60,000 nucleotides of DNA from Mobula hypostoma (lineage: Eukaryota): assembly GCF_963921235.1 (NCBI RefSeq), contig NC_086097.1, positions 106,890,001 to 106,950,000 on the forward strand. The letters run 5' to 3'. The position numbers were made by a program, and so were the translations under genes. The notes below the pieces were generated by a model, which made no database searches, was not told the origin of the DNA, and saw only the letters and a list, made by a program, of their open reading frames with translations. Numbering within the stretch: the stretch's first letter is position 1; each line of letters begins with the position of its first letter. Of the stretch, positions 2,698 through 60,000 are shown piece after piece.

Positions 2698-2898
2698 TAA
2701 GGCTCAGGAATTCACTGTAGGGGGCCAATATCCTATGCACAAACATTTTGAATTGCTTCATCAATGACATTCCTCCAATCATAATGGTTCAAGAGGGTCT
2801 GTTTGTCAAAAACCACACAATGTTCAATTATATTTGAAATTACTTAGCAAATGAAATAGTTTGCAGCTGAATGTTACAAGACCAGTGTGTGGATCATA

Positions 2899-3099
2899 AA
2901 CACCAGGAAATCTGTAGATGCTGGAATTTTAAGCAACACACATAAAAGTTGCTGGTGAACGCAGAAGGCCGGGCAGCATCTCTAGAAAGAGGTACAGTCG
3001 ATGTTCGAACTATCCTGACGAAGGGTCTCGGCCTGAAACGTCGACTGTACCTCTTCCTAGAGATGCTGCCTGGCCTGCTGTGTTCACCAGCAACTTTTA
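2899..3099. mobile_element. Short PLE-derived foldback insertion with hammerhead core (3015-3042, +)
   Basis: About 2940-3005 is the reverse complement of about 3037-3102. CTGACGA-AGGGTCTCGGCCT-GAAACGTC core present. TGTGGATCATA duplicated at 2888-2898 and 3100-3110. Confidence 0.8.
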
Positions 3100-3579
3100 T
3101 GTGGATCATACCTTTTCTTTACTTGGTAAAGAAAAGGTATTTCATTTGATCTTAACCCAGAGGTCAGCCTCGTTGTGATAATGGCAACTTCAACATGAGG
3201 TTGTTGATTGTTTTCTTTTTATCTTGTGGTAGTGTCAGTGTAGGGTACATTAGGATACATGGGATTTACAATACAGATGAGTAGGTTTTGTGCAGGAAGG
3301 AAATCACTATCATGACAGTTGCATGACTTGCAATACATCTTGCTCTCTCACATAGCCAGAGACTGATGGCTCTTGATTTAAGGCTGCAACTAGATGAGTT
3401 GCTTCTTTGTGCGAGCAATGGATCTTCCACAGAGTTTTGACATTCTAGAAGCAAGGCTACAGTGTGAACATAAAAGAAATAATTTTATGCAATGAGATTA
3501 TTGTGTAAGTGGTTAATTTGTTGTGAAACATTTCAGGAGGCAGTCTGTTTTTTTATGTTTTCTTTATTTTCTTGCTCCT

Positions 3580-5333: not shown

Positions 5334-5855
5334 ACACACATCAAAGTTGCTGGTGAACGCAGCAGGCCAGGCAGCATCTCTAGGAAGAGGTACGGTACAT
5401 TTCGGGCCGAGACCCTTCGTTAGGACTAACTGAAAGAAGAGCTAGTAAGAGATTTGAAAGTGGAAGGGGGAGGGGGAGATCTGAAATGATAGGAGAAGAC
5501 ATGAGGGGGAGGGATGGAGCCAAGAACTGGACAGTTGGTTGGCAAAAGGGATATGAGAGGATCATGGGACAGGAGGCCTAGGGAGAAAGAAAAGGGGGGG
5601 GGAACCCAGAGGATGGGCAAGGGGTATAGTGAGAGGACAGAGGGAGAAAAAGGAGAGAGAGAAAGAATGTGTGTACATAAATAAATAACCGATGGGGTGC
5701 GAGGGGGGAGGTGGGGCATTAGCGGAAGTTAGAGAAGTCAATGTTCATGCCATCAGGTTGGAGGCTACCCAGGCAGAATATAAGGTGTTGTTCCTCCAAC
5801 CTGAGTGTGGCTTCATCTTTACAGTAGAGGAGGCTGTGGACAGACATATCAGAAT
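5334..5855 (-). mobile_element. PLE 3' fragment (GIY-YIG tail, pyrimidine-rich UTR, mutated hammerhead)
   Basis: Reverse complement matches about 58950-59467. Hammerhead core mutated to CTAACGA. Confidence 0.85.
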
Positions 5856-6194: not shown

Positions 6195-7590
6195 ATTAGG
6201 AGGGACTCCGATGACAAGCTAATAAACCAAGCCAAAGTCACAAGACTAGGCCAAAAGTAGGCCTCCAACTCAGCCACAGACCAGGCAGTGAGCTCCTTGC
6301 AATTGAGAGACATCATTGGCTGCCCACAAACAAGGGAAAATCTGCAGAGGCTGGAAATCTGAACAACCCACCCAAACTGCTGGAGGAACTAAGCAGGCCA
6401 GGCAGCATCCATGGAAAAAAAGTACAGTGGACGTTTCAGGCCAAAATCCTTCAGCAGGACCATTGGCAATCCATGCCTGTGATGGCAAGGAGTCGGCTCA
6501 GCACATTTCCAACGATGGAGGAGTTCAAGTGCAAGGGATAGGTGTGACATGGTCCAGGGAGAGGCACGGAACTGTGAAGACAAAATGCGGTTATCAAAGG
6601 TGGTGGAGGGGGGCGTTACAGAGCGCCTGGATGAAATGGGATCTTCCCAAGCTCAAGATCACTTGGGCAGAGATTTGGAGACTAGATCCCTTCCTCATTT
6701 CTTTTCTTCTGTCATTTGTGTATGACACTCTCCCTACACCATCACAGCTGCACACATGGGGGCTGAGAGAGGACCTTAACTGCAAGCTTTGTGGTCAGCG
6801 GGGTTCACTGGCACACATACTTTCAGGATGTAAAACAGCTTTGACACAAAGATGATATAGGTGATGCCATGACAAGGTCCTTCTATCCCTTCCTAACACA
6901 CTGGAGTGATAGAGATGTAAAAAAATGACCAGCTGGCAGATAGGCAAATAGCAGCCAATTTCATCAAGGAGAGGGCCACACCAGTCATATCAACGAGGCC
7001 TCAATCTAATCTGCTGCAAACTGCTAAATTATGGGAGATGAGGGTTGGTGTGGGGAGGAAACTGCAGTTTCCAGAGGGGGTTGCAAACCACACTTCGACC
7101 AGACATCGTATTGTGATCCACCGAAGACAAGAAAATAATCCTGGTGGAGCTCACAGTACCATGGGAGGAATGATGATGCAAGGAGGCTCATGAGAGGAAA
7201 GCCCTTAGTCCAGGAGTGCAGGGACAAAGGATGGCAGACGTGGCTATCCCCCTTGGAGATCAGCTATAGAGGGTTCCTGGCAAGGTCAGCATGGAGGTTG
7301 CTGTCTGTGCAAAAACAAAGCAGCTGGCAGGATGGGGGAGGGAGCAGAAAGAGCCTCTTGCTGGATATGGAGCAGGTGAGAGGAGTTGAGCTGGAAGTCA
7401 GGAACAGATAGGCAGTGACTTGGCCACCATATCTTACCCACCAACTGCAGAGTGTAGTGGTTAAGGGTCAAAACACTCTATAAAGATTGGGCGCCACCTA
7501 ACAACATCCACTCCTGGCCAAAGGCTGTGGTTACCTCATCAGGTAACTGTCGAGAGCTCCCTGGTGTATAATGCAAGTGTAAGGAAAAGC
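6195..7590 (+). mobile_element. Hero-like (R2 superfamily) non-LTR retrotransposon 3' part with CCHC knuckle and restriction-like endonuclease
   Basis: VYDTLPTPSQLHTWG, CKLCGQRGSLAHILSGC (CCHC), YR*CHDKVL, TTLRPDIVL...IILVELTVPWEE (PD-(D/E)xK-like). Contains stops. Confidence 0.75.
6321..6460 (-). mobile_element. Older-subfamily PLE tail with hammerhead variant, inserted in the Hero element
   Basis: Reverse complement reads GTCCTGCTGAAGGATTTTGGCCTGAAACGTCCACTGTAC. CATTGGC duplicated at 6314-6320 and 6461-6467. Confidence 0.75.
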
Positions 7591-8423: not shown

Positions 8424-8428
8424 TAAGT

Positions 8429-8447: not shown

Positions 8448-8522
8448 TTGAATGCCAAATTTGGGACTGGGTAAATTGATTGGGTTAAAATTCCCGAAAG
8501 AAAGAAAGGGCAAACAGCAGAA

Positions 8523-10120: not shown

Positions 10121-10132
10121 CCCGTTTGCGCA

Positions 10133-12400: not shown

Positions 12401-12535
12401 AGTCCTGACGAAGGGTCTCGGCCTGAAACGTCGACTGCGCCTCTTCCTATAGATGCTGCTTGGCCTGCTGCATTCACCATCAACTTTGATGTATGTTGCT
12501 TGAATTTCCAGCATCTGCAGAATTCCTGTTGTTTG
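12401..12535 (+). mobile_element. PLE tail with intact hammerhead core (12401-12436)
   Basis: AGTC-CTGACGA-AGGGTCTCGGCCT-GAAACGTC-GACT followed by the family 3' end. Confidence 0.85.
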
Positions 12536-12604
12536 GGTATAAAAAAAGACTCTGTATCTGTGTGCGGGGAGAGAGACTACTGGTACGGACCCCATGTGTG
12601 TACC
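12535..12604 (+). repeat. Remnant of the ERV 5' LTR (TATA/R region)
   Basis: GGGTATAAAAAAAGACTCTGTATCTGTGTGC... matches 19262-19330 of the 3' LTR. Confidence 0.85.
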
Positions 12605-28376: not shown

Positions 28377-30720
28377 GTTCGGCATGACAAGCATTGACCA
28401 CACTTCTTGCTGCGACGACATAAGGATGTTTCAAGATCCACTCTTCTTGATTCGCTCCACAGTAGACAAACTCCTTGTTGCATCTGTGTGAGCGTCTATG
28501 AGCTGTTGATATCAGTCGGTAGCAGTCTCCTCCTCCCCCCTTTCCAGTGGCCTGAAGCGATTTCTCACCTCCACTATGTACTGGGCTTGAAGAATAGGTT
28601 GTGAGGAGAATGGCTTCCAGTCTACCTTCTCCTTGGGACCTGTGGCTTTGGGTTGCCGCAGGCTCAGTTTCACTTGCATTGACACTACTCTGTGGTCAGA
28701 ACTGACCGAGTTGAAGGTGCTGTAGGCTTCTGTGTTGATCACACAATTACGCCATTTTGTTCTTACAAGGATGTAATCGAGCTGTTTCCTGTAGATGGAG
28801 GCTCTGTTTTCGTATGTCCACAGTTTACCAGCTCATTTCTTGAATTGTGTGCTGGCGGCAATGAGACTGTGTTCCTGGATGTCATGCCGAACTTAGAAGG
28901 AGCGAAACAAAGAGCTAAGAAACAAGTTCAAGACAGCAAAGAAGAATCTCTTTGCCACCTACGACCCAATGAGGGAAGAGGAACTAGCTGAGAGGTTTAG
29001 AGAGATAGAGGCTGCTAATGAAGACATGCAGCATGGAGAAGCATGGCACCTAGTCAATGAGATCAGTAGACAGAAGAAGTCCCCATCAGGTCAAATAAGT
29101 GGTAAAACAGCAGAGGACTGTGTCCAGACATGGCTTACCCACTTTAAGAACCTGCTGGGAAACCCTCCAAAGATCACAGAAGAAGAAGAGGACATACCCA
29201 TGATATTAACACAAGTCGACATCGATGACGGCCATTGAGGAACTGAAGAAGGCCAAATATGCACTCAAACAGGGCAGGCGCGCTGGACCAGATGAGATAC
29301 CACCAGATGTCCTGAAGAACTGCGACCTGGACAACATCTTGCTGTACATATGTAAATACAGCATTGATGAAAGGCGACAAACCAGAACAGTGGTCACTCT
29401 CAAACATTATCCCAGTCCCCAAGTCTGGATCCCTCACGAAGACAGATATCTACCGCGATATCAGCTTGACCTGCATCTTAGCAAAGTTATACAATCGGAT
29501 GATCTTGAACAGGATTTGCACCGCCATTGACTCTATGCTAAGATTCAATCAGAATGGTTTTCGGCAGAAGCACACAACGGTAATACAAATACTTGCTCTC
29601 TGTAGAATCATCAAGGAAGTTGAGAAGAACAACCTATTAGCCATGCTTAAATCGATTTTCGCAAAGCTTTTGACTCCATTCACAGAGGTAAAATGCTGAA
29701 GATCCTGAAAGCTTACCATGCCAGACCAGACCATCTACTGAGAGCAATAGAGTCCAGCTATACCAAAACCATGGCGAAAGTTGTATCACCAGACGGAGAA
29801 ACAGCAGTGTTCGAGCTCCTAGCTGGTGTGCTGCAAGGAGACACTCTGGCACCCTACATCTTTATAATCGTCCTTGATTATGCTCTGCGACAAGCTACCA
29901 AAGACCATGACAAGCTTGATTTTACCATAAAACCAGGACGAACCAAAAGACTCAGACCAGTTATGCCCACAGATCTCGATTTTGCAGATGACATAGTCCT
30001 GCTCTCTGACCAGATGGAGGAAGCACAGCAGCTACTGACAAAAGTGGAAATTGAGTGCAATAAAGTTGGACTTCACCTAAACGCTAAAAAGTACATGGCA
30101 TTTAACTGCGACGAAGATACTCTCAAGACAGTACAGAATGGTACCATTAAGAAAGTCTTTGACTACAAGTACCTCGAGTCAAGAATGATGAACTCAGAGA
30201 AGGACATAAAGATACGGAAGGCGCTGGCGTGGAGGGCTATGAACAACATGAAGGAAACCTGGAAGTTGAACCTGACCAGAGGGCTTAAAAAGAGGATTTT
30301 CATAGCAGTCATAGAGTCCATTCTCACGTACTCACCAAGACTATGTGAAAGTCTCTAGATGGTTGCTATACATGAATGCTCCGGATGGCTCTTGACGTGA
30401 GTTGGCAACAGCACGATTAACGTCGAGCTCTATAACGACCTACCAATGCTCACCACCAAAATCAAGGCAAGAAAACTGCAGCTAGCGGGGTACTGTCTAT
30501 GCCACCCCGAGCTACCTGCCAGCCTAGTCATCATATGGGAGCCCAAGCACGGGAGGATGAACCCTGGGTGCCCTCCCAAGACTATGGTCAACACACTCCT
30601 AGAAGACAGCGGCGTGGCTAATGTAGATGAACTGAACACACTGATGAGGGAGAGGGAGAAGTGAAGAGTCCGTCATCATGCCCGACGCCAGCCCCCTAGG
30701 CTTGAGTCGACGTAGTAGCA
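28377..30720 (+). mobile_element. RTE/RTEX-type LINE with inverted 5' segment
   Basis: 28377-28879 minus-strand APE piece (SSDHRVV). 28880-30720 plus-strand RT (GVLQGDTLAPYIF, DLDFADDIVLL). (TAG)n tail. Confidence 0.88.
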
Positions 30721-31407
30721 GTACGTCACATGTTATGAACGATGGAAGTGAACGCCACATAACCTTTGCATCACATTCCCTTACTGCTGCAGAGAAAAAT
30801 TACACAGAGATTGACAGAGAGGCCTTGTTTAGGGTGTAAACATTTCAACCAGTACCTGTATTAGACAGGGTTTACCTTCATTACTGATCACCTACCACTA
30901 GTGTCAATTTTCAAACCTCAGAAAGGTGGTCTACTAACAACAACAGCACAAATACAGAGATCTGTCCTGTTTCTTGCAGGACACAATTACAGGATCGAAT
31001 TCAAGAGGACAACTAATCATGGAAGTGCTAATGAATTGTTGCATTTACCACTGAAAAAGGAGATACCCAAAGCACTTACAAAGAAGAACACCCCTCTTGA
31101 TGTATTCTCCCAAACACAAACTGAAAGTCTCTCTTTACCACAGAAGTGATCCAAAGGGAAACTAGAAAAAAACCCACACTGTCTCAGGTCAACATTGCCA
31201 CTCATAATGGCTGGAAAGTGCAGCAGAAATTCCAGCTCTCCCATTCTACCAGCGCTGGAATGAAAACCTTTTCCGGGGGAGAGATTGCCTGATGTGGGAA
31301 TTGAGAATTGTACCATCCAAGCTGAGAACTAAAGTGTTAGAGGTGCTACATGCCAGTCATCTTGGCATAGTCAAAATGAAAATGTTGTCTCAAAGCTTTG
31401 TCTGCTC

Positions 31408-31645: not shown

Positions 31646-32239
31646 GCTGGCCTGGGATAGATTAGCAGATTGAGCAGTTTGTCATGCACTGTTTAGGAGG
31701 CTAAGGGCAGCACCTTTCAATCCCTGGGAATAGACTTGGCAGAGGATTCTTGTGGATTTTTCCCTACCATTCAGGGGCACAAATTTCTTAGTGGTAGTGG
31801 AGGCAGCCACCAAGTGGCCAGAAGCATTCCCAATAGCTTCCTCCACAGTTTCTCTTTGTTAATGTGTTGGGAAGCTTCTTTTCAGGACTGGTGTTCCAGA
31901 ACAGTTAGTCTGTGACAGGAGACCCTAGTTTGTTGAGGATCAGTTTCAGTCATTCCTGAAAATGAATGGAATAAGACATATGGCATCTGAACCATACCAC
32001 TCAGCTACAAATGGCTTGGTGGAAATGTGTGTCAAAATTGCATATTTGGAAAAATTAAGGACAGAACTTGACCACTCTCCTACACAGTGGAGATTGTGTC
32101 TGATGTTGAGGAGAGCAGAGTTAATTGTTGGAGAAGAAATGTGTCCAGATCTTTCAGATCCACCTCCTGCAGTCCCAGAATCGACTCCTGCAACCACCAG
32201 GGAGGAAACTCAGAATCTGAGACTGTTTTACAACCGCAG

Positions 32240-32341
32240 ACACGAGAAAATCTGCAGATGCTGGAAATTCAAGCAACACACACAAAAAACGCTGGTGAAC
32301 GCAGCAGGCCAGGCAGCATCTATAGGAAGAGGTACAGTCGA
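32240..32341 (-). mobile_element. PLE tail fragment
   Basis: Reverse complement matches 59401-59505. Confidence 0.85.
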
Positions 32342-36380: not shown

Positions 36381-37150
36381 TTAAGAACTACAGAGCCAAA
36401 TATGTCTGTATAAATAAAATGCCATTTTGTGCCTGTTTTTATAGCATTTGTAACAATTTGAAAAACTTAAATGAATATTGGAGAAGAAAATGCGTAGTGC
36501 TGGAAAACAAGAGTTGGATTTACAAGTACAATGTACTAAAAACCCAAGCTTGTTTGACTCAGTACAGGTCACACATAAAATTTATACCACAGCTTCATTA
36601 TCATGAGTATAATGGTCAGAGAGTGCCAACCGTGTTGATTCTGTATAAGAACATAATCTGGCATGCTATTAAGTGAGTGTCTGGCATCATCTGAAGGATG
36701 CTGGAGCTGATGGAAACAACGATATTAATTCCTGTAACAGATGCCGTCATTGCCTCCAACCACTACCGGAAACTATTCTTTGAGAAGATTGATCAAGGTC
36801 CAGCAGAAATCATACCACCAGATTCATGGAATCCATCCAGGACTATCATGGAGCACCACTGAGTCAATCTCAAGAGTAAAGCTACTTGACATAAATGTTG
36901 TGCCACAAAAAGTTTAATGATTTAGTGTTCATGGTCGAGTCTGATAAAAATATTGGCAAATCCTGTTTCCCATTTGCAGCGCTAACCTTACACAATACTC
37001 AATATAGTGCATCCCATATCTTCTTTAGTAAACACCACTATCAACGATGAATCCACTTATTTCCTTGCAGGATAATTTACAGGATACTTGTCTGGGATTT
37101 GATACTGAATATTGGTCAGGATCGTATGTTTCCTTCTTAGTACTATAATT

Positions 37151-37235
37151 TAGCCTGACGAAGGGTCTCGGCCCGAAACGTCGACTGTACCTCTTCCTAT
37201 AGATACTGCATTCACCAGCAATTTTTATGTGTGTT
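37151..37235 (+). mobile_element. Young PLE tail with hammerhead core 37155-37182
   Basis: CTGACGAAGGGTCTCGGCCCGAAACGTCGACTG. Confidence 0.85.
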
Positions 37236-37935
37236 ACCTGTGAGTCTGTTGGGGTCATCTATGGTATCTGGTGCCCCCAGTGTGGCTTTCTCTACATCGG
37301 TGAGACGCAACGTGGATTGGGGAACTGTTTCATGAAGCATCTCCACTCAGTTCACCACAAAAGGTAGGAGGTCTCAGTGGACACCCATTGCATACTTCCC
37401 ATTCCGATTTTGACATGTCTGTTCATGACCTCCTCTACTACCATGATGAGTTCAAACTCAGGTTTAAGAAACAACACCTCATATTCCATCTGGGTACCCT
37501 CCCACCTGATGGCATAATCATCAATTTCTTCATCTTCTAATAATTTCTCTTTCTCTTTATTCCATTCCCTATTCTGGTTACCCTTTCATCCTTTCTCTAC
37601 TCCTCAGCTGCCTGTCATCACCTTCTCATTCCCATCCTCCTTCCCTTTCTTTCATAGTCCACTGTCCTCTCCTCTCCTACTGGATTCCTCCTTCATCAGC
37701 TCTTTATCTCTTCCACTCATCCCCTCCCCTATCCACCCACCTTCCTCCTCACCTACTTTCACCTATCACCTGTCAACCGTACTCCTTTCCTTCCGCCATC
37801 TTCTTGTTCTGGCTTCTGTCCCCTTCCTTTCTGGTCTTGCTAAAGGTTCTCAGGCCAAAATGTCAACTGTTTATTCCCCTCCATAGATAATGCCTGACCT
37901 GCTGAGCTCCTCCACTATTTTGTGTGTTTGTCCAG
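37236..37935 (+). mobile_element. Older PLE 3' fragment with GIY-YIG motif
   Basis: TCESVGVIYGIWCPQCGFLYIGETQR, pyrimidine-rich UTR, decayed hammerhead near 37833-37870. Confidence 0.8.
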
Positions 37936-39773
37936 AATCTGGAATGCATTTCTAGAGGTGGGAATGGAGGCAAATTCACTTGCAGCAGTCGAAAGTGAGC
38001 TGGAAAAGCATCTGGCAGGAAAAAAAACGTATGCAGAACTATCAGCATACGAGAGTGAGATTCATGGGGGGAATGGATTTTTGTCCATCATGCTATTACA
38101 AACTATAGTTTTATATATTGAGCTTGGAAGGTGGATTTGATTGGGTCTTATGTTTAGGTGTTATAGTCATTTGTCTTATTGTTATTCTTATTCACTCCTG
38201 CAATATGGATGTATTCAGCAGGTCAAGATTTAACCATCATTTCTCATTGTTCTGGAAAGTGGTGAGGAGAATCTGCTGGAATGTTGTTCATAAGTGTGGA
38301 TTTGTAAGATTTTATACCAAGGAAGGCAGATGTATTGGAAGCCATGATGGTGTGTACTTAAAGGTAAATTTAAGTGATGGTGTTCTCACATGATTGTTTC
38401 CATTGTCCTAGAGGTCAAAGGTTTGAAAGGCTTACTTCCATTCTGAACTGCTTTTTTCTGTATATTTTGTCGGGGTTACACGTTATAGCTACAGTAATGG
38501 GAGTGCCAAATATATAGATATCTCTATATGGGGGGTTATATGGGAGGCAAGGTTTAAGCTCGGCACATTGTGGGCTCAAGGGCCTGTACTGTGCTGTACT
38601 GTTCTATGTTCTATTCAAAACTGACATGCTTCCTCAACAGTTTTGTAACAGCACTTACCCGGACAAGTGGAGAATATTGTCGTCTTGTCAAAGCTGCATT
38701 CTTGCACACAAATGTGAAGTATATTATAACAATGCTAGTGAGTCTAGGTGATGGAATGGCTTTTGGGATTCAGGTGTTAAATCCTTCCCCACAAAATTTC
38801 CAACCTCTAATCAGTGGCTTGTCAAATTAAGTTTCTGGTCAATGGTAACTCCAGTTGAAGAGAACTAGGCAACAGCAGTACCACTAAATTTCAAGTACGC
38901 AATTGGACCCTTTTATTTTCTGAGAGTCATCATGAACTGGCATTTTGGAGTACCAGTGTTATGACCAGAATGCTAATGCCAGATTGCTGTTCAAATGTTG
39001 CTCCATGTGGGCGTGGCCATTTCATTACTTTTTTAAAATACCATTGAGAATAACTATTTATACTATTATAATGCCTTTACTATGGTAGAATGTCCCAAAA
39101 TGATTTACAGGGGAATTATTAGTGGAATATTATAAGCAAAGAATTTGACATCAGCCTGCATAATGTGACCGACAGTCAAAACTTTGGTCAAAGGGGAACA
39201 TGTTGAAAGAGAGGAGAGATAGAAACACAGATTCAGAAAGGAAATTTTAGAGATCAAAGCCCAAGTATCTCCAGACATAACCAGCAATGGAATGAGCAAG
39301 AGGCCCAAGCTGGATGATCACAGAGGCTCAGGTTGAGGTATTTTGTTTGTATGTTTAGAGGAACACTTCTGGTCTAGATGGCGCCAAAGAACAATAATTC
39401 CTTGGGTGACATCTTCCAAATAGTCATTCATTTCAATTATATCACTTTTTCTACGTGTGTTTCAGAAACTATTGGAACCAGTGACTTCCAGTTTGGCATT
39501 CAATCAGATAAGCTAGCACTCTGCTGTCCCCAAGAAAATTCCAGGACAGGACCACAAGCACAAGCTGTACCAAACAGGAGACAAGGCGCGGGGTCATAAT
39601 CGACTACATTTCTTGGCAATCGAAGTTGCATCAAACAGAGAAACAGCAGTATTTGAGCTCCTAGCTGGTGTGCTGCAAGGAGACACTCTGGCACCCTACA
39701 TCTTTATAATCGCAACACACATCAAAGTTGCTGGTGAACGCAGCAGGCCAGGCAGCATCTCTAGGAAGAGGTA

Positions 39774-39811
39774 CAGTCGACGTTTCAGGCCGAGACCCTT
39801 CATCAGGACTA
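39774..39811 (-). ncRNA. Minimal type I hammerhead ribozyme
   Basis: UAGUC CUGAUGA AGGGUCUCGGCCU GAAACGUC GACUG on the minus strand. Confidence 0.75.
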
Positions 39812-40447
39812 ACTGAAGGAAGAATTAGTAAGAGATTTGAAAGTTGGAGGGGGAGGGGGAGATCCAAAATGATAGGAGAACACAGGAGGGGGAGGGATGG
39901 AGCCAAGAGCTGGACAGGTGATTGGCAAAGGGGATATGAGGCGAACACCTACGCTCTGTCCGCCAGAGAAAGCAGGATCTCCCAGTGGCCATGCATTTTA
40001 ATTCCACATCCCATTCCCATTCTGACATGTCTATCCACGGCCTCCTCTACTGTAAAAATGAAGCCACACTCAGGTTGGAGGAACAACACCTTATATTCCG
40101 TCTGGGTAGCCTCCAACCTGATGGCATGAACATCGACTTCTCTAACTTCCGCTAATGCCCCACCTCCCCCTCGTACCCCATCCGTTATTTATTTTTATAC
40201 ACACATTCTTTCTCTCACTCTCCTTTTTCTCCCTCTGTCCCTCTGACTATACCCCTTGCTCATCCCCTGGGTTTCCCCCCTCCTTGTCTTTCTCCCCAGA
40301 CCTCCTGTCCCATGATCCTCTCATAACCCTTTTGCCAATCACCTGTCCAGCTCTTGGTTCCATCCCTCCCCCTCGTGTCTTCTCCTATCATTTTGGATCT
40401 CCCCTTCCCCCTCCCACTTTCAAATCTCAACTAACTCTTCCTTCAGT

Positions 40448-40485
40448 TAGTCCTGACGAAGGGTCTCGGCCTGAAACGTTGACTG
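40448..40485 (+). ncRNA. Minimal type I hammerhead ribozyme (GUU cleavage triplet)
   Basis: UAGUC CUGACGA AGGGUCUCGGCCU GAAACGUU GACUG. Confidence 0.7.
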
Positions 40486-42239
40486 TACCTCTTCCTAGAG
40501 ATGCTGCCTGGCCTGCTGCGTTCACCAGCAACTTTGATGTGTGTTGCTTGAATTTCCAGCATCTGCAGAATTCCTGTTGTTTGCATCTTTATAACCATCC
40601 TTGATTACGCTCTGCAACAAGCTACCAAAGATCATGACAAGCTTGGTTTTACCATAAAACCAGGATGAACCAAAAGGGTCAGACCAGTTACGCTCACAGA
40701 TCTTGATTTTGCAGATGACATAGTCCTGCTCTCTGACCAGATGGAGGAAGCACAGCAGCTACTGACAAAAGTGGAAATTGAGTGCAATAAAGTTGGATTT
40801 CACCTAAACGCTAAAAAGTACATGGCATTTAACTGCGACGAAGGTACTCTCAAGACAGTACAGAATGATACCATTAAGGAAGTCTTTGACTGCAAGTACC
40901 TCGAGTCAAGAATGATGAACTCAGAGAAGGACATAAAGATACGGAAGGCGCTGGCGTGGATGGCTATGAACAACATGAAGGAAATCTGGAAGTTGAACCT
41001 GACCAGAGGGCTTAAAAAGAGGATTTTCATAGCAGTCATAGTCTATTCTCACGTACGGATGTGAGATGTGGACACTCAGCAAGACTATGCGGAAGTCTCT
41101 AGATGGTAGCTATACATGAATGCTCCGGATGGCTCTTGACGTGAGTTGGCAACAGCACATGACTAACGTCGAGCACTATAACAACCTACCAATGCTCACC
41201 ACCAAAATCAAGGCAAGAAGACTGCAGCTAACGGGGTACTGTCTACGCCACCCCAAGCTACCTGCCAGCCTAGTCATCATATGGGAGCCCAAGCATGGGA
41301 GGATGAACCCTGGGCGCCCTCCCAAGACAATGGTCAACACACTCCTAGAAGACAGCGGCGCAGCTAATGTAGATGAACTGAACACACTGATGAGGGAGAG
41401 GGAGAAGTGGAGAGTCTGTCATCTTGTCAGTGCCAGCCCCCTAGGCCTGAGTCAATGTAGTAGTAGTAGTAGTCGAAGTTGCATCGAGGCAAATGCAGAG
41501 GAGCTGGGTTGGCAGTCATTCTTAATGGGTCAAGCTGGGGGTTGAGTGGCTGCATCGGGCCAGAGGTCACTTCCCATGGGAGGCCGCGTTGGGCTGGAGG
41601 TCATTCCGCATGGGAGACCACATTGGGCCGGAAGTCGGAAGGCTGCATCTTGGCAGGTGAAGGTCCCACAGGAGGACCAAGTCTGTTCTTAGGTAGAGAG
41701 TCTCCTGACTCCAATAAAGTCCAGGAAGTTGTATTCTTAATGTTTTGAAAGTTCTCAAAGTATTTACAGAATAGGCATTGCCAAAATCTTTAACAGTCAC
41801 CCATAATGCTCTTAATGGGACTTATAGATCTTTTTCACAGGTGCAGCAGAAATGAATATGAAATGATGATATTTAAAATCACCATCAGTATTTTTTCTCC
41901 TATGTATCTGGAAGAGGGTAAAGAACAAATGCAGAATGCTAAGTGAGTACTGGAAAGCAACTAAAGTGACAACCCATCCTTTCACAAGATTCTGGATTGT
42001 TCACACTTGGCCTTTCTGGAGTGTGAACTTTACTAACATAGCATCATAGGATGAGTACATATCAAATGGACATTTTAACATATCTTCTCCTCACAACCAC
42101 CACAGAGAACAGAACAGAGAACATAATGCCCCAGAAAGCCATGCATATTGAAGAACAGAGGAAATGTGGTGTATAATCACTGCAACCATTTACAATATTC
42201 AACATTCAAATTCAGAACACTCTAGAACTTAAATGATCA

Positions 42240-42360
42240 AACAGCCCAAAACATCAACTATACTGTTTTTCCATAGATGCTGCCTGGTCTGCTGAGTTCC
42301 TCCAGCATTTTGTGTGTGTTGCTCGGATTTCCAGCAACTGCAGATTTTCTCTTCTTTGTG
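42240..42360 (+). mobile_element. Older-subfamily PLE tail
   Basis: CCATAGATGCTGCCTGGTCTGCTGAGTTCCTCCAGCATTTTGTGTGTGTTGC, similar to the reverse complement of 6321-6460. Confidence 0.7.
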
Positions 42361-43539: not shown

Positions 43540-44470
43540 ATGCCAGGCAGGATGTTGGAATGTTCGTCTTGCAGGATGTGGGAAGTCAGGGAGCCCTCCG
43601 GTGCCCCTGACAATGACACCTGCAAGAAGTGCATCCAGCTGCAGCTCCTAACCGCGTTAGGGAACTGGAGCAGGAACTGGATGACCTGCGGATCATTCGG
43701 GAGAATGAGGAGATTATAGATAGTAGCTACAGGGAGGTAGTTACGCCAAAGGAGCAGAGGACAGGAAATTGGGTCACTGTCAGGCGAGGGAAGAGGAAAG
43801 TGCAGGCAGAGCAGGGTTCCCCTGTGGCCATTCCCCTCAACAACAAGTATACCGCATTGGATACTGTTGTGGGGGATGACCTACCTGGGACAAGCTGCAG
43901 TAGCCGGATCTCTGGCACTGAGTCTGGCTCTGCACTGCAGAAGGGAGGGGGGAAAAAGGAGAGCAGTAGTGATAGGGGACTCAATAGTTAGAGGTGCAGA
44001 TAGGAGGTTCTGTGGTCGTGACAGAGAATCCAGGATGGTTTGTTGCCTCCCAGGTGCCAGGGTGAAGGATGTCTCTGATCGATTGCATGACATTCTGAAG
44101 TTGGAGGGTGACCAGCCAGATGTCGTGGTGCAAATCGGTACCAATGACATAGCAAGGAAGAGTGAAGAGGTCCTGGACAGTGAGTATAGAGAGCTTGGTA
44201 GGAAGTTGAAAAGCAGGACCTCGAGGGTGGTAATCTCAGGATTGCTACCTGTGCTACGTGCCAGTGAGGGTAAGAATAGGATGTTCTGGAGGATGAACAA
44301 GTGGCTGAGAAACTGGTGTAGGGGGCAGGGTTTCAGATTTCAGGACAATTGGGACCTCTTCTGGGGCAGGTGGGACCGTACAAGAGAGACGGGTTACACT
44401 TGAACTACAGGGGGACCAATATCCTTTCAGGGAGGTATGTTAGTGCTATTGGGGAGGCTTTAAACTAGAT
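43540..44470 (+). pseudogene. CR1 ORF1: zinc finger/leucine zipper plus SGNH esterase
   Basis: CSSCRMW...CKKC, RVRELEQELDDL, VVIGDSIVR, QIGTND. Frameshifted. Confidence 0.88.
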
Positions 44471-47395
44471 TTGCAGGGGGATGGGAACCAGAGTGCCAGA
44501 GCTGACAGTGTGGCTGGGGTGAAAATAAATGATGTTAAAAGTTCAAGCAAATCCGATAATAGAAAGGTTGTGAGTGGTGGTAAAAATCTTCTGAGGTGTA
44601 TATATTTCAATGCTAGGAGTATTGCGGGGAAGGCGGATGAGTTGAGGGCGTGGATTGACACGTGGAACTATGACGTTATAGCAATTAGTGAAACTTGGCT
44701 ACAGGAAGGGCAGGACTGGCAGCTTAATATTCCAGGGTTCCGATGTTTCAGATGTGATCGAGGCAGAGGAATGAAAGGTGGGGGAGTAGCATTGCTTGTT
44801 AGGGAAAATATTACTGCAGTGCTCAGGCCGGACAGATTAGAGGGCTTGTCTCCTGAGTCCTTCTGGGTGGAGCTGAGAAACAGGAACGGTATGGCCACAT
44901 TAGTGAGATTGTATTACAGACCACCCAACAGTCAACGAGAATTGGAAGAGCAAATCTGCAGAGAGATAGCAGGCAACTGCAGGAAACATAAAGTTGTGGT
45001 GGTAGGGGATTTTAATTTTCCATATATTGATTGGGACTCCCATACTGTTAGGGGTCTAAATGGTTTAGAGTTTGTAAAATGTGTTCAGGAAAGTTTTCTA
45101 AATCAATATATAGAGGGACCAACTAGAGGGGATGCAATATTAGATCTCCTGTTAGGAAACGAGTTAAGACAAGTGACAGAAGTCTGTGTAGGGGAGCACT
45201 TTGGTTCCAGTGATCATAACACCATTAGTTTCAACTTGATCATGGACAAGGATAGATCTGATCCCAGGGTTGAGGTTCTTAACTGGAAGAAGGCCAAATT
45301 TGAAGAAATGAGAAAGGATCTAAAAAGCGTGGATTGGGACAGGTTGTTCTCTGGCAAGGATGTGATCGGTAGGTGGGATGCCTTCAAAGGAGAAATTTTG
45401 AGAGTGCAGAATTTGTATGTTGCTGTCAGGATTAAAGGCAAAGTGAATAGGAATAAGGAACCTTGGTTCTCAAGGGATATTGCAACTCTGATAAAGTAGA
45501 AGAGGGAGTTGTATGACATGTATAGGAAGCAGGGAGCAAATAAGGTGCTTGAGGAGTATAAGAAGTGCAACAAAATACTTAAGAAAGAAATCAGGAAGGC
45601 TAAAAGAAGACATGAGGTTGCCTTGGCAGTCAAAGTGAAGGATAATCCAAAGAGCTTTACAGGTATATTAAGAGCAAAAGGATTGTAAGGGATAAAATTG
45701 GTCCTCCTGAAGATGAGAGTGGTCGGCTATGTGCGGAACCAAAGGAAATGGGGGAGATCTTAAGTAGGTTTTTTGCATCTGTATTTACTAAGGAAACTGG
45801 CATGAAGTCTATGGAATTAAGGGAAACAAGTAGTGAGATCATGGAAACTGTACAGATCAAAAAGGAGGAGGTCCTTGCTGTCTTGAGGAAAATTAAAGTG
45901 GATAAATCCCCGGGACCTGACAGGGTGTTCCCTCAGACCTTGAAGGAGTCTAGTGTTGAATTTGCAGGGGCCCTGGCAGAAATATTTAAAATGTCGTTGT
46001 CTACAGGTGAGGTGCCGGAGGATTGGAGAGTGGCTCATGTTGTTCCATTGTTTAAAAAAGGATCGAAAAGTAATCCAGGAAATTATAGGCCGGTAAGTTT
46101 AACGTCGGTAGTAGGTAAGTTATTGGAGGGAGTACTAAGAGACAGAATCTACAAGCATTTGGATAGACAGGGACTTATTAGGGAGAGTCAACATGCCTTT
46201 GTGCGTGGTAGGTCATGTTTGACCAATCTGTTGGAGTTTTTCGAAGAGGTTACCAGGAAAGTGGATGAAGGGAAGGCAGTGGATATTGTCTACATGGACT
46301 TCAGTAAGGCCTTTGACATTCCCGCATGGGAGGTTAGTTAGGAAAATTCAGTCGCTAGGTATACATGGAGAGGTGGTAAATTGGATTAGACATTGGCTCA
46401 ATGGAAGAAGCCAAAGAGTGGTAGTAGAGAATTGCTTCTCTGAGTGGAGTCCTGTGACTAGTGGTGTACCACAGGGATCAGTGCTGGGTCCATTGTTATT
46501 TGTCATCTATATCAATGATCTGGATGATAATGTGGTAAATTGGATCAGCAAATTTGCTGATGATACAAAGATTGGAGGTGTAGTAGACAGTGAGGAAGGT
46601 TTTCAGAGCCTGCAGAGGGACTTGGACCAGCTGGAAAAATGGGCTGAAAAATGGCAGATGGAGTTTAATACAGACAAGTGTGAGGTATTGCATGTTGGAA
46701 GGACAAACCAAGGTAGAACATACAGGGTTAATGGTAAGGCACTGAGGAGTGCAGTGGAACAGAGGGTTCTGGGAATACAGATACAAAATTCCCTAAGAGT
46801 GGCGTCACAGGTAGATAGGGTCGTAAAGAGAGCTTTTGGTACATTGGCCTTTATTAATCAAAGTATTGAGTATAAGAGCTGGAATGTTATGATGAGGTTG
46901 TATAAGGCATTGGTGAGGCCGAATCTGGAGTACTGTGTTCAGTTTTGGTCACCAAATTACAGGAAGGATATAAATAAGGTTGAAAGAGTGCAGAGAAGGT
47001 TTACAAGGATGTTGCCGGGACTTGAGAAACTCAGTTACAGAGAAAGGTTGAATAGGTTAGGACTTTATTCCCTGGAGCGTAGAAGAATGAGGGGAGATTT
47101 GATAGAGGTATATAAAATTATGATGGGTATAAATAGAGTGAATGCAAGCAGGCTTTTTCCACTGAGGCAAGGGGAGAAAAAAACCAGAGGACATGGGTTA
47201 AGGGTGAGGGGGGAAAAGTTTAAAGGGAATATTAGGGGGGGCTTCTTCACACAGAGAGTGGTGGAAGTATGGAATGAGCTGCCAGACGAGGTGGTAAATG
47301 TGGGTTCTTTTTTAACATTTAAGAATAAATTGGGCAGATACATGGATGGGAGGTGTATGGAGGGATATGGTCCGTGTGCAGGTCAGTGGGACTAG
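44471..47395 (+). pseudogene. CR1 ORF2: APE endonuclease plus RT
   Basis: YFNARSI, ISETWL, VGDFNFP, GSSDHN, GVPQGSVLGP, KFADDTK. Premature TAG at 45497 and two frameshifts. Confidence 0.93.
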
Positions 47396-48711
47396 GCAGA
47401 AAATGGTTCAGCACAGCCAAGAAGGGCCAAAAGGCCTGTTTCTGTGCTGTAGTTTCTATGGTTCTATGATAACTAAGTCCAGTTCCTGGCCTTCATGTGT
47501 GGCTTAGCTACTAAGCCCGGTGGAACTGTTTCTACCGACAGAAGAAGGCAAAAAGGCGGGTTACTGGTGCCTTAAAACCAGTCACTTCGGGCAGATGGGA
47601 TTCATCAGCCATGGTTGGCAGCTCATCTGGAAGGAAAACTCTGATCTCAAATCTCCTTTGCCCTGCAGCTATACCCACTCATGGGAATGGCTTCAGGAGC
47701 AAACTTCGAGGGAAAAACCTGGAGCTAAAGTAGTTCTACATTGAGTTCAATGCTGAATTCCAACTCCTATAACACTGCTGGTATCAAACTGTATCGGTCT
47801 CTGCTGTTCCTTTGGGTTCATCGGATGCGTGGAGAGGGGGAGCTTGCTACATGGGCAACAGCTTGCACTCCATATCGTACAGCCTAGGCTTGCGTATCTA
47901 GACAGCTAGGATGCAAGATCCATGGTCAACTCTGACCGACGGAGGCCTCAGACTTCGACTCTTTCAATCTTGCTGCTATCTCTCCTTTAGGTAGGTGACC
48001 AGAACTGCACAAAATACTACAAATTAGGCCTCACCAACATCTCAAGCAACTTTAACATTACACTTGGCTACAAAAGACTAGTTGCAAAATTTCAACTTGA
48101 ATTCTTCAAACCAAACTTACATGCTCGGTCTGCTGTAATTCACTACAACAATAAATATTTTAGTCTATTTAAAAAGAAGCAGGCATGCATATGCAAAGTA
48201 AATTTTATGATCCCAGAGTATATAAGGACTAACACTCTTGATATTCTACTGTTAGGGAATATGCACATGTATTGTTAGGGCTGCTGGCTCATTGTGCTAT
48301 ATGTACATGTGCAGAGAGCATTCGGCAGATGCTTCAATAGCATGGGCCAAATTCAGGCAAATGGGAACTAGCTCAGTTAGGCCACATGCTCAGCACAGAT
48401 AGTTAGACTAAGGGCCTGTTTATATCCAGTATAGCTCTATGACTCCAAGTGGCAATGTGCCCTTTAACAAGTCGATGAGAGGCATTGTTCTCCCACTTAC
48501 TGCATCTTAAGGACATATTAACAAACCCATAACACACTGCAGTATTTTGCAACTGATCTACTGTTAAAGCCACATGAAATCAAAGTCTTGGAGATCCTGA
48601 TTGTTAATGCATGCCAGATCCCATCAGATTTTACAATGAACTGTCTGGAATTGCCATCCAAGTTGTTGATATCTCTCCTTTAGGTAAGCTCTGCCCCAGG
48701 CCACATTTTCT

Positions 48712-51261: not shown

Positions 51262-51745
51262 AATTGCATAGTGGTTAGCATAATCGTTTTATAGCCCCAG
51301 CAACTGGAAGACCGGTGTTTGATCCCTGCACCACACATCAAAGTTGTTGGTGAACGCAGCAGGCCAGGCAGCATCTCTAGGAAGAGGTACCGTCGACGTT
51401 TCAGGCCGAGACCCTTTGCCAGTCCTGGTACGTTCACCAGCAACTTTGATGGGTGTTGCTTGAATTTCCAGGATCTGCAGATTTCCTCATGTTTGCGTGT
51501 TTGATCCCTGCCACTGTTTGTGACCACATGGGTTTCTTCTACTCCAGTTTCCTCCCGCATTCGAAAGACACATGATTAGGGTCAGTGAGTTGTAACACAT
51601 CTATGTTGGCTCTGGAACTGTGGTGACATTTCCAGGCTGCCCTGAGCACAAAGCTCAGACTGTGTTGGTCGTTGATGCAGAACCACGCATTTTACTCCAT
51701 GTTTAGATATTTCAATGTACATGTGACAAATAAAGCTAATCTAAT
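51262..51745 (+). mobile_element. tRNA-derived SINE (family of 1760-2055)
   Basis: CATAGTGGTTAGCA head, TTTCCTCCCGCATTCGAAAGAC core, TGTGACAAATAAAGCTAATCT end. Confidence 0.6.
51330..51496. mobile_element. Short PLE foldback insertion
   Basis: Inverted then direct PLE tail. GTGTTTGATCCCTGC duplicated at 51315-51329 and 51497-51511. Confidence 0.85.
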
Positions 51746-53288: not shown

Positions 53289-53775
53289 ATAGACAATAAA
53301 CAATAGACAATAGGTGCAGAAGTAGACCATTCGGCCCTTCGAGCCTGCACCGCCATTCTGAGATCATGGCTGATCACCTACTACCAATACCCGGTTCCTG
53401 CCTTGTCCCCATAACCCTTGATTCCCTTATCCATAAGATACCTATCTAGCTCCTTCTTGAAAGCATCCAGAGAATTGGCCTCCACTGCCTTCTGAGGCAG
53501 CGCGTTCCACACCGCCACAACTCTCTGGGAGAAGAAGTTCCTCCTCAACTCTGTCCTAAATGACCTACCCCTTATTCTTAAACCATGCCCTCTGGTACTG
53601 GACTCTCCCAGCATCTGGAACATATTTCCTGCCTCTATCTTGTCTAATCCTTTAATAATCTTATACATCTCAATCAGATCCCCCCTCAATCTCCTTAATT
53701 CCAGCGTGTACAAGCCCAGTCTCTCTAACCTCTCTGCTTAAGACAGTCCGGACATCCCAGGAATTAACCTAGTGA
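53289..53775 (-). mobile_element. CR1 3' fragment
   Basis: ORF 53381-53713 (RRLRGDLIE, NFFSQRVV) and an (ATAGACA)n tail. Confidence 0.9.
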
Positions 53776-53849
53776 TGTACCAATCAATAGATAGAAATTG
53801 AAGTCACCATGACAACAGCCCTGTTATTTTTGCACCTTGCTCAGATATG

Positions 53850-56470
53850 CCTCCTGATCTGCTCCTCGGCATTTCTTTCGTTATTGGTCGTCCTTGCCGT
53901 CCTTCCTTTTTGTAGCTATGATACTATCCCTGATTAACAATGCCACTGCCCTACCTCTTCTACCTCCCTCCTGAAACCCAAGAACATCCAGCAGTGATTC
54001 CTGTCCTTGTGACACACATAATGGCCACATCGTAGTTCCATGCACTACTCCATGTTCTAAGACCATCACTTTCATTCTTGATAAAATAGACATTTACATT
54101 AAAAAACACATTTCAACCCATTCAACTGACTGCAATTTTGTCCGATCCACTACCTATCCTGCCTCAGTCTCTACATGCAGTATCTACCTTTATATCACTG
54201 CCCCATCCTCTGACCTATCAGTTTGATTTCCAACCCCCTGCCAAACTAGCTTAAACCCTCCCTGACAACTCTAGCAACTCTGTAATGATGTTTGTCCCAC
54301 TCAAGTTTTAATGCAACTCGTCCATTTTGTACAGCTCATACCTTCACCAGAAGAGATCAAAATGATTCACAAACCTGAAATCCTGCTTCTATGTCAATAC
54401 TTTAGTCACCCATTCAACAGCCAAATCATCCTATTCTTACTTTCCGGTGAAATCATTGGATTTGTGAAAGGAAAATCATGACTGACGAATCTCACAGAAT
54501 TTTTTGAGGATGTAACTAGTAGAGTGGATAGGGGAGAATCAGTGGATTTGGTATATTTGGATTTTCAAAAGGCTTTTGACAAGGTCCCACACAGGAGATT
54601 AGTGTGCAAATTTAAAGCACACGGTATTGGGGGTAAGGTATTGAAGTGGATAGAGAACTGGTTGGCAGACAGGAAGCAAAGAGTGGGAATAAATAGGACC
54701 TTTTCAGAATGGCAGGCAGTGACTATTGGGGTACCGCAAGGCTCAGTGCTGGGACCCCAGTTGTTTACAATATATATTAATGACTTAGACAAGGGAATTA
54801 AATGCAGCATCTCCAAGTTTGCGGATGACACGAAGCTGGGCGGCAGTGTTAGCTGTGAGGATGATGCTAAGAGGATGCAGGTTGACTTGGATAGGTTAGA
54901 TGAGTGGGCAAATTCATGGCAAATGCAATTTAATGTGTATAAATGCGAGGTTATCCACTTTGGTGGCAAAAACAGGAAAAGATTATTATCTGAATGATGA
55001 CTGATTAGGAAAAGGGGAGGTGCAAGGAGACCATTGTACACCAGTCATTGAAAGTGGGCATGCAGGTACAGCAGGCGGTGAAAAAGGTGAATGGTATGCT
55101 GGCATTCATAGCAAGAGGATTCGAGTACAGGAGCAGGGAGGTACTATTGCAGTTGTACAAGGCCTTGGTGAGACCACACCTGGAGAATTGTGTGCAGTTT
55201 TGGTCCCCTAATCTGAGGAAAGACATTCTTGCCATAGAGGGAGTACAAAGAAGGTTCACCAGATTGATTTCTGGGATGGCAGGACTTTCATATGATGAAA
55301 GACTGGATCGATTGGGCTTATACTCGCTGGAATTTAGAAGATTGAGGGAGGATCTTACTAAAACGTATAAAATTCTAAAGGGATTGGACAGGCTAGATGT
55401 AGGAAGATTGTTCCCGATGTTAGAGAAGTCCAGAACGAGGGGTCACAGTTTAAGGATAAAGGGGAAGCCTTTTAGGACCGAGACGAGGAAAAACTTCTTC
55501 ACACAGAGAGTGGTGAATCTGTGGAATTCTCTGCCACAGGAAACAGTTGAGCCCAGTTCATTGACTATGTTTAAGAGGGAGTTAGATAAGGCCCTTCTGG
55601 CTAAAGAGATCAGGGGTATGGAGAGAAGGCAGATACAGGGTTCTAAGTTGGATATCAGCCATGATCATACTGAATGGCCATGCAGGCTCGAAGGGCCGAA
55701 TGGCCTACTCCTGCACCTATTTTCTATGTTTCTATGTTTACGCTCACTGGTTCATGGCACAGGCGGTAGTCCAGATATTACTACCCTTGAGGTCCTGCTT
55801 TTCTACTTCCTACCTAATACCCCATATTTTCTCTTCAGGACCTTTTTTTCTCTTCCTATCTATGTCTGGCCACTAAGTCTCCCCCTTAAGTATGCCGGGG
55901 TCCTAACCTGAGATGTTCCTGACCCTGGTACCTGGGAGGCAACGTGCCATCTGGGAATCACTTTCAGATCGACAAAATCTCCTGTCTGTTTCCCTAACAA
56001 TTGAATCTCCTATCACCACTTTTCTCCTCCTCTCCCACGCGACTTCCCTTTTGAGCCCTAAAGCCAGACAGTGCCAGAGACCTGGCTACTGCAGCTTTCC
56101 CCTGGTGGTTCATCCCACACCCCCCACCACCACCTCTGCAGCATCCAAAGTGGTATACTTGTTATTGAAGGGAACAGCCACAGAGGTACAGTGTGGGAAA
56201 TCCGTGGGAAAGGAAATCTGCCTATTACATTTCCCTCTCCGGACAGTCACCAAGCTCTCTGCTTTCTACAACTTAGCTGTGTTTCCTCCCTGTAGGTCCT
56301 ATCCATCATCTCCCCATCCTCCTAACTGAGCTCTCAGTTATCCAGCTCCAGTACTAGCTCCCTAGCATGGTCTGTAAGGAGCTGCCCCCGATGCATGTCT
56401 CACAGATGTGGCAATCAGGGAGAATGGTGGTCTCCCAGATCTCCCACATCTTGCATGAGGAGCACATCAC
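53850..56470 (-). mobile_element. Old CR1 5' part (ORF1 and start of APE), split by a younger CR1
   Basis: Minus-strand KVVIGDSIVRETDRRFC near 55970-56020, and GRAVALLIRDSI in ORF 53881-54093. Confidence 0.7.
54445..55738 (+). mobile_element. 5'-truncated CR1 LINE (same subfamily as 25261-26930)
   Basis: ORFs 54524-54997 and 55048 onward with DFQKAFDKVPH and KFADDTKLGG. (TTTCTATG)n tail. Confidence 0.93.
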
Positions 56471-58076: not shown

Positions 58077-58818
58077 GTTCTTTTTGCCACATTTTAATTA
58101 AGGGGTAATTTACAGTAGCCAATTAGTCTACCAGCAAGTCAATGGAAGGTAAGAGGAAACTGGAGTGCCCAGTACATACAGGGAGAAGGTACGAACTCTG
58201 AAAAGGCAGTTCCTGATGTTAAGATCAAACCTGTCTTCCTGGAGCAATAAGATTTATGTCAGGAAACTGTGTAACTCAGAGGAGATGGAAATGATGATGT
58301 TTCTTAACAATGTAGCTTGTGTCCTTTCTGCTGTTATATATTATGTACCTGGGAAATTGTGTCAGAACACTCCATTTTTGACCTTACGATGAAAAAAAGT
58401 AAATGATGAAGTAGCTGAAGATAGCTGACTCCAGGACAGCCTCAAGGACCCTCTGAAGCAAATGTCCTGGAGCCGAAATAACTGACTTCAACCACCAGGG
58501 TAATAATGACAGAGCATATTAAGATAGAATACACGAAGGAGTGATGTGCTGAAGATGGTGAAAGGGATGTCATGCAAGCCAGTTGCTTTATCCTTAATGC
58601 TGTTGAGCTTCTTGTTTTATTGTTAATTGCCCCTTTAAATATTTTAGTTGTGTGTCTGGAGAGCAATGAAGAGTTTGAATACTTTAATGATCATGGAGTT
58701 TCCTAACTGGACAAAAGTGATATAATTTCAGCAAAACAGATTTTTTTTAAATGTTGGACGAGGATCAACTTCATTTATGCTTGCTTGTGTTTTTTTACTT
58801 GCCGCATAGGGAGCACGA

Positions 58819-59085
58819 TGTGGCCTTCTATATATTGGCGAGACCCAACGCAGACTGGGAGACCGTTTTGCTGAACACCTACGCTCTGTCCGCCAGAGAA
58901 AGCAGGATCTCCCAGTGGCCACTCATTTTAATTCCACATCCCATTCCCATTCTGATATTTCTATCCACAGCCTCTTCTACTGTAAAGATGAAGCTACACT
59001 CAGGTTGGAGGAACAACACCTTATATTCCATCTGGGTAGCCTCCGACCCGATGGCATGAACATTGACTTCTCTAACTTCCGCTAA
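58819..59085 (+). pseudogene. GIY-YIG endonuclease C-terminal part (open frame, no start codon)
   Basis: CGLLYIGETQRRLGDRFAEHLRSVRQRKQDLPVATHFN...RLEEQHLIFHLGSLRPDGMNIDFSNFR*. Not listed in the ORF track. Confidence 0.88.
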
Positions 59086-59369
59086 TGCCCCACCTCCCCC
59101 TCGTACCCCATCCATTATTTATTTTTATTACACATTATTTCTCTCATTCTCCTTTTTCTCCCTCTGTCCCTCTGACTATACCCCTTGCCCATCCTCTGCG
59201 TTCCCCCCCTTTTTCCTTCTCCCTGGGCCCCCTGTCCCATGATCCTCTCATATCCCCTTTGCCAATCACCTGTCCAGCTCTTGGCTCCATCCCTCCCCCT
59301 CCTGTCTTCTCCTATCATTTTGGATCTCCCCCTCCCACTTTCAAATCTCTTACTAACTCTTCCTTCAGT

Positions 59370-59407
59370 TAGTCCTGATGAAGGGTCTCGGCCCGAAACG
59401 TCGACTG
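59370..59407 (+). ncRNA. Minimal type I hammerhead ribozyme
   Basis: Stem I UAGUC/GACUG, core CUGAUGA, stem II GGGU/GCCC with loop CUCG, GAAA, palindromic ACGU stem III. Predicted cleavage after C59402. Confidence 0.8.
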
Positions 59408-60000
59408 TACCTCTTCCTAGAGATGCTACCTGGCCTGCTGCATTCACCAGCAATTTTGATGTGTGTTGCTTGAATTTCCAGCATCTGCAGAATTACTCTT
59501 GTTTGCGTTTTTAAATTCATTACTTTCTTTTCATACAAGGAATATGAGTGTGACAGTCATTTAATGCCTACCATCATTCTCTTAGAGATGATGGCTGTGA
59601 GCAGCTATTTGAACAAATTTCAGTTCTTATGATAAAGATTTTCTACTGGTTTTGGGTAGAGAGGACCAAGATCTTGATGCAATGATAGCAGACTTGTCAT
59701 ATTTCCAAATGTGCACTCTGTGAGTCTGAAGTGCAATTTGTAGGAAATGATCTTTTATTCTGCTTCCTTCCTTCCTTCCACTGTCATCTTTGGATTTAAT
59801 AGCATGGTTGAAGAAGCTTAATGCCATTGAGCATTTTGTGGATGCTTCACACTGCTGAAATGATGCACCAGTGGCAGATGGAGTATATGCTTCCAATGGT
59901 TGATGGGTGCCAGTTAACCAGTTTTCCTTGTTTTTGATGGTGTGGCGCTCCTCGTGTCTTGTTAGAGCTGTACTGAAGGATTTACTGGCTGGAAATTGAG

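Follow-up and report, generated by a model that had tools for sequence, protein, structure and literature searches.

The window analysed here, a 60,000-nucleotide stretch of Mobula hypostoma contig NC_086097.1 (positions 106,890,001 to 106,950,000), contains near its end a 5'-truncated remnant of a Penelope-like element (PLE), in which the last part of a GIY-YIG endonuclease frame and a pyrimidine-rich 3' UTR are followed by a minimal type I hammerhead and a tail (Table 1). No TSD was recovered for this copy in our TSD search of copies, and at 59506-59524 it reaches about +120 from the predicted cleavage site, some 18 nt beyond the usual long end of the family and into the ORF start.

The window was searched with the 38-nt motif at 59370-59407 as a query, allowing up to three mismatches, and six matches were obtained (3010+, 12400+, 37150+, 39774-, 40448+ and 59370+) against none across 100 dinucleotide shuffles of the window. 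The recurrence described in an earlier note on this DNA is thus real, and a chance motif was rejected. The decayed copies listed in that note are likewise present (5423(-), 6457(-), 51422(-) and an older copy near 37832(+)), and further pieces were found beyond its list (2898-3005(-), 32232-32341(-), 42269-42358(+) and 51417-51498(+)). A satellite or retrozyme array was rejected as the source, since the window copies are dispersed or inverted and the tandem units are 3.5 kb long and coding; a SINE or viral origin of the hammerhead copies was also considered and rejected.

The CUGAnGA, GAAA and UH core, stems I and II, the extra base between positions 9 and 10.1 (A59382) and a palindromic, loopless stem III are all present at 59370-59407. 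Stem III had correctly been read as a bare ACGU; because it is followed immediately by C17, no loop is left and the stem can form only between two copies, as the earlier note also held. An Rfam scan of the window gave no hammerhead match. With a structure descriptor, 680 kb of unselected DNA yielded 20 matches and five Markov controls 0-1; of the 20, 19 belong to the PLE family of the window or to its close kin.

Table 1. Features of the hammerhead-bearing PLE family in the window
Position	Strand	Feature	Basis
59370..59407	+	Minimal type I hammerhead	Sequence, descriptor, folding
59370-74 paired with 59403-07	+	Hammerhead stem I	Sequence
59375-81	+	CUGAnGA core	Sequence
59382	+	Extra A	Sequence; position between 9 and 10.1
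59383-86/59391-94	+	Stem II, 4 bp, with 4-nt loop	Sequence
59395-98	+	GAAA	Sequence
59398-59401	+	Palindromic ACGU	Sequence
between 59402 and 59403	+	Predicted cleavage, after C17	Inferred from hammerhead numbering
58816..59524	+	5'-truncated PLE remnant (709 bp), element -594 to +120 from cleavage site	90.4% identical to intact copy L118
58813..59085	+	GIY-YIG endonuclease remnant and stop, C-terminal 90 codons of ORF	tblastn, Pfam
59086..59369	+	Pyrimidine-rich 3' UTR (pseudo-LTR body)	Sequence, full-copy layout
59403..59505	+	Tail region holding the two family end points	Distribution of 283 ends
2898..3102		Head-to-head insertion: long arm (-) and short arm (+), 11-bp TSD	
39712..40584		Head-to-head insertion: short arm (-) and long arm (+), 11-bp TSD, hammerhead in both	
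51328..51498		Head-to-head insertion: short arm (-), its hammerhead damaged, and long tail piece (+); 15-bp TSD	
5334..5855	-	Short-tailed copy, 5'-truncated, with damaged hammerhead	
6327..6460	-	Older sister-subfamily copy, A6C core	
12401..12543	+	Short copy: hammerhead and long tail	
32232..32341	-	Tail-only copy, start within 1-2 nt of cleavage site	
37150..37235	+	Short copy, hammerhead and short tail, abuts older PLE copy	
37236-37537; near 37832	+	Older PLE copy: GIY-YIG piece; decayed hammerhead	
42269..42358	+	Decayed older tail piece	

Other elements share the window. An LTR retroelement at 7635-12386 has LTRs of 750 bp (7635-8384 and 11634-12386; 95.5% alike), a gag-like frame at 8813-10117 that encodes SCAN and zinc-knuckle domains, and a pol frame, shortened internally (10121-11455), in which an integrase zinc finger precedes the RT piece, an order that we take to be that of Gmr1-like gypsy elements; one hammerhead copy lies 14 bp beyond its 3' LTR. 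Several LINE fragments with RT and AP-endonuclease domains, presumably of CR1 type plus a second LINE family, were found at 16794-18411, 25261-26720, 29651-30723, 43561-47468 and 53291-56464, some pairs among them being 92-96% alike.

Identity, architecture and copy number of the family

The GIY-YIG remnant that the earlier note had placed upstream of the motif in longer copies was recovered by tblastn at 58813-59082 (91%), 39847-40152 and 5856-5722, the Pfam GIY-YIG match of the window piece alone being weak (E 0.0037, below the cut-off). Full copies were reached by searching with this remnant and then with an N-terminal piece, and 20 full-length copies were selected for a 1043-codon frame, which is open in all of them. 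Each has the order hammerhead, tail, ORF, 3' UTR, hammerhead, with an ORF composed of an RT, a CX4CxxC linker and a GIY-YIG endonuclease. Pfam assigns RVT_1 (E 3e-5) and GIY-YIG (E 5e-4) to the ORF, both below curated cut-offs; the YIDD and GIY-YIG motifs are present, the CX4CxxC linker precedes the endonuclease in 8/8 aligned ORFs, and among named homologs a bamboo shark protein is closest (71% identity), which points to a shark or ray as the likely host. In the ORF copies L061 and L063 the Pro/Ser-rich N-terminal linker is internally duplicated, in frame.

The distance between predicted cleavage sites is 3507-3517 nt (3.51 kb) in the 20 full copies, whose mean distance is 1.6% (190 pairs), and the ORF stop lies 290-300 nt from the hammerhead core in every one of them. 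All 20 contain a partial tandem forming a pseudo-LTR, with an upstream repeat of about 50 to 3368 nt, and the hammerhead sits in this terminal repeat. Inverted 5'-truncated copies with a tail at one end also occur in the family, the two tail ends lying about 37 nt apart. The order RT, linker, GIY-YIG and a CX2-5CxxC linker are given for Neptune and Nematis in passages of PMC8557442. By its sequence the element is a young EN+ PLE, probably of Neptune type, a clade assignment based on a linker motif that Nematis also has.

A search of the animal's own 3.48-Gb genome with the 28-nt core yielded 55,586 exact matches, and the reversed control yielded 0. The very high copy number and the Penelope-like family with a minimal type I hammerhead proposed in the earlier note are hence both borne out, the latter by ORF domains and architecture, and the approximately 55,000 intact cores are the 3' ends of mostly truncated insertions.

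Insertion ends and the arms of inverted insertions

The 283 distinct ends of the family fall into two discrete groups, 118 short (+55 to +76) and 116 long (+92 to +112), the 49 found elsewhere being mostly those of diverged older copies that end near +43. The corresponding end points in the tail, at about +58 to +74 and about +95 to +108, would represent RT start sites.

Head-to-head insertions combine one long and one short end. Among 58 bounded by TSDs, this was found in 52 by strict windows and the same pattern in six borderline cases; seven of these pairs come from unselected blocks and the rest from loci fetched otherwise, none by tail length. When a TSD was not required, the 66 contiguous head-to-head pairs were all long plus short (one of them borderline, 83/72), and neither long-long nor short-short pairs occurred among them. 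TSDs are mostly 10-17 bp long (mode 13-14), head-to-head junctions are mostly overlaps of a few bases, and the simple TSD-bounded copies end long in ten cases and short in 11. Either arm can be the longer one: the arm reaching further upstream is the long-ended one in 24 of the 58 insertions and the short-ended one in 28, with six complex cases (16, 20 and four, respectively, by hand count without the 18 rows from loci with a break at +1). At one locus (L062:2819-9195) the insertion is a 6.4-kb near-perfect palindrome, with arms 99.5% alike, two almost full ORFs and a single 13-bp TSD; at another (L130:1731-8763) one arm of 6.9 kb holds nearly two full units and its partner about 90 nt.

This pairing of one long with one short end, in which either arm may be the longer, is a sharp and testable constraint on the insertion mechanism. 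Passages of PMC11167929 report that purified PLE protein (PAc) cuts and extends both strands and that reverse transcription starts at two sites bounding the tail. Given extension of both strands from two start sites in that system, twin priming at two RT start sites appears to us a reasonably probable reading here, in which both target strands would be primed once each, at two sites within the tail. Two RNAs choosing freely would also yield long-long and short-short pairs, so that a single RNA platform with strand displacement would be simpler.

The template of new insertions

The cleavage site is 5' of both end points, and an insert bearing the hammerhead therefore needs an RNA intact at that site rather than the cut linear monomer. 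New insertions would be written from RNA that is uncut or rejoined there, and an intact-junction RNA is very probably the insertion template. Within full copies, the upstream repeat matches the downstream one at 205 of 224 diagnostic alleles where 129.7 are expected; the two agree at every diagnostic site in 14/20 full copies (L124 being confounded by a second insert), and differ by 0.7% within a copy against 1.5% between copies. Such matching implies that the repeat is regenerated from the same source, through a circle or through template jumps. A few chimeric copies (L120 and L121) show switching between sources.

A circular intermediate has been proposed for PLEs in PMC4209133. That circular RNA provides the intact-junction template of this family is a possibility that we regard as doubtful. 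A fuller scheme, in which a hammerhead pair would free and reclose a 3.51-kb circle on which a protein dimer would prime both nicked strands, one at each tail site, and read round with strand displacement, is speculative and rather unlikely. Were this scheme true, one mechanism would give pseudo-LTRs of any length (with arms of up to nearly two units), matching alleles in the two repeats and the long-plus-short rule, and a family with tens of thousands of dated events could settle how PLEs transpose and what their ribozyme does.

Folding and conservation of the hammerhead

Nearest-neighbour folding, which takes no tertiary or metal terms into account, favours inactive forms. The 38-mer folds no better than its shuffles (z -1.5), the monomer adopts a rod in which CGUC pairs with the core, and among dimers an inactive duplex scores best (-31.7 kcal/mol). 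In this model the active dimer (window copy, -17.9 kcal/mol; youngest form, -12.9) lies above two inactive monomers (-23.4). In the youngest subfamily, which is also the most successful, the canonical G10.1-C11.1 pair has been lost and the active dimer is energetically least favoured: the pair is present in the window copy and in older subfamilies, and is replaced by G-U (or a shifted A-U) in the youngest, 185 of 290 copies. In the older A6C sister subfamily (6327-6460(-); L221-L250), unlike the youngest, the active dimer is about isoenergetic with two monomers (-21.9 versus -23.0).

Seven subfamily groups were compared from 290 aligned copies, a sample enriched for young loci. They differ at N7, in loop 2, at the outer pair of stem I, at position 11.1 and at A6; in one group a pair of stem I is broken and in another A6 of the core is altered. 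Stem covariation, a check that the earlier note had called for, was limited to one-sided changes, with no double compensatory change among the seven groups. The pyrimidine tract 5' of the ribozyme and the spacer 3' of it vary freely, and conservation of the tail is about equal to that of the ribozyme. In 205 young copies the core had decayed by 0.6% and the tail by 1.0%, a comparison left out of the argument, since retrieval of many loci through the core pattern biases it. Across four runs from other organisms the family's homology breaks off sharply at 59371 and 59408, the edges of the motif, within which variation falls on N7, CpG sites and the end of stem I. The A6C subfamily has 126 exact matches, with an upstream PLE ORF at 18/30 loci, and provides a naturally occurring case, in a eukaryote, of a core change that is known to alter which metal is preferred.

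Weighing alternative explanations

Tails confined to one end of inverted repeats are known, and have been attributed to self-priming or endonuclease resolution (Arkhipova 2013, PMC3846280; Craig 2021, in passages of PMC8557442). Inverted insertions would accordingly be fold-backs of one self-primed cDNA, with the tail trimmed from one end on resolution, an explanation to which we give an appreciable though less than even chance. One tail per insertion then follows automatically, and the two arms are usually at least as alike as either is to the reference copy. However, a cDNA that starts at the short site would carry no tail, and one that starts at the long site would have to be the longer arm, whereas the short arm is the longer in 28/52 simple cases, and by more than one full unit in L112, L114 and L130, so that frequent large one-sided deletions are needed. 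A fold-back with a one-sided central deletion could also yield a longer short arm.

The other two alternatives concern the ribozyme itself. The earlier note envisaged a large reservoir of potentially self-cleaving RNA, in which transcripts through any two copies would pair and cut; the abundance of intact cores and the enrichment of descriptor matches in unselected DNA speak for it, but active self-cleavage of host RNA on this scale seems highly improbable to us. Most copies are solitary or head-to-head, and a head-to-head partner is antisense and would mask rather than complete the ribozyme; the predicted monomer and best dimer folds are inactive; published activity is low, with inactive monomers and weakly active dimers of this hammerhead anatomy in PLE repeats across animals (passages of PMC4209133); and in the anole the PLE hammerhead cleaves only with the element's protein and no RNA ends map to its cleavage site (passages of PMC11167929). 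Inserts would begin at +1 if cut RNA commonly served as template. The genome-wide raw counts of apparent 5' breaks, made with 27-mers that differ between positions, are indeed highest at this cleavage position (289, about 0.5% of the core count raw and about 2% allowing for a five-base filter), but among the six control positions they reach 264 at -27 and 168 at +5, with 57 at -9, 88 at -2, 111 at +3 and 76 at +17. When 30 loci with a +1 break were inspected, 22 were element-to-element junctions, many via stem I microhomology, and the other eight had no TSD. Nearly equalled at -27 and confounded by stem I microhomology, the +1 count is weak as evidence of a footprint; a dominant excess of insertion breaks at +1 is excluded and a small one is possible. 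At L198, L207, L208, L214 and L215 the ribozyme core is lost via stem I microhomology, through recurrent junctions or precise deletions, and the first 100 listed +1 breaks include 13 such junctions of one form and 27 of another.

The hammerhead might instead be a vestige, kept within a protein-binding or promoter segment and not as a catalyst. The wide amplification of the A6C subfamily and the G-U at 10.1-11.1 of the youngest family agree with this; core mutants leave in vitro insertion unaffected (passages of PMC11167929), and Naiads, which thrive and form the same structures with no canonical hammerheads (passages of PMC8557442), argue that the ribozyme is not required. Against it, subfamily variation falls on N7, loop 2 and stem ends, positions that a ribozyme tolerates, the homology across organisms is bounded by the motif, and A6C is a known active natural hammerhead variant favouring Mn2+ (PMC7151607). 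We consider a vestige unlikely. The motif likely cuts rarely and with help, a cut being predicted only where two sense copies would pair via ACGU, likely helped by the element's protein. Overall, a PLE terminal hammerhead, a template uncut or rejoined at the cleavage site and priming of two strands at two tail sites together form the best explanation, which we hold to be probable.

Comparison with known elements

In L1 twin priming, head-to-head arms lie within one pair of TSDs and are joined with junction microhomology. Unlike in L1, the two arms here copy one and the same stretch of the template, each from a fixed start. Our literature searches, by title, returned no paper applying twin priming to the PLE mechanism, and none on a Neptune Penelope-like hammerhead in sharks.

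The closest published counterparts are the minimal hammerheads of PLE pseudo-LTRs, which in passages of PMC4209133 are likewise of type I, with a stem I of 4-5 bp, an additional base between 9 and 10.1, helix III lacking and 15.2-16.2 palindromic; they lie in both flanking repeats, about 3 kb apart, and are mostly solitary. The present family differs in its 4-bp stem II, the G-U at 10.1-11.1 of its youngest members, its A6C subfamily and its 55,586 exact cores, against about 2,000-9,000 there; the one of the two supplements of that paper that was searched holds no shark or ray name. Neptune EN+ PLEs resemble it in their single ORF, partial tandems, inverted 5'-truncated copy and one-end tail of 30-40 bp (passages of PMC8557442); here, by contrast, clear 10-17-bp TSDs lie in AT-rich unique DNA, and the one-end tail is a rule (66/66) where in Neptune it is given as "often".

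In Poseidon PAc of Anolis the hammerhead also adjoins the 5' side of a tail with two end points that overlaps the ORF start, and intact RNA serves as the template (passages of PMC11167929). Poseidon is of a different clade and was studied by biochemistry, the present family by sequence; in those passages the two start sites are not related to the two arms of inverted insertions. Non-LTR retrozymes (passages of bioRxiv 10.64898/2026.07.22.740005) similarly carry PLE-derived type I hammerheads in vertebrates, including one cartilaginous fish, but form short non-coding tandem arrays, in contrast to the truncated ends of an autonomous element found here.

The present family matters modestly, because it is young, keeps many ORFs intact and counts its insertions in tens of thousands, which permits statistics on how inverted ends and tails arise in Penelope elements and on whether the hammerhead is used. 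Its ribozyme class and anatomy are already published, and it is an ordinary member at unusually high copy number; beyond the known class, it adds a quantified long-plus-short rule and an older sister subfamily with an A6C core.
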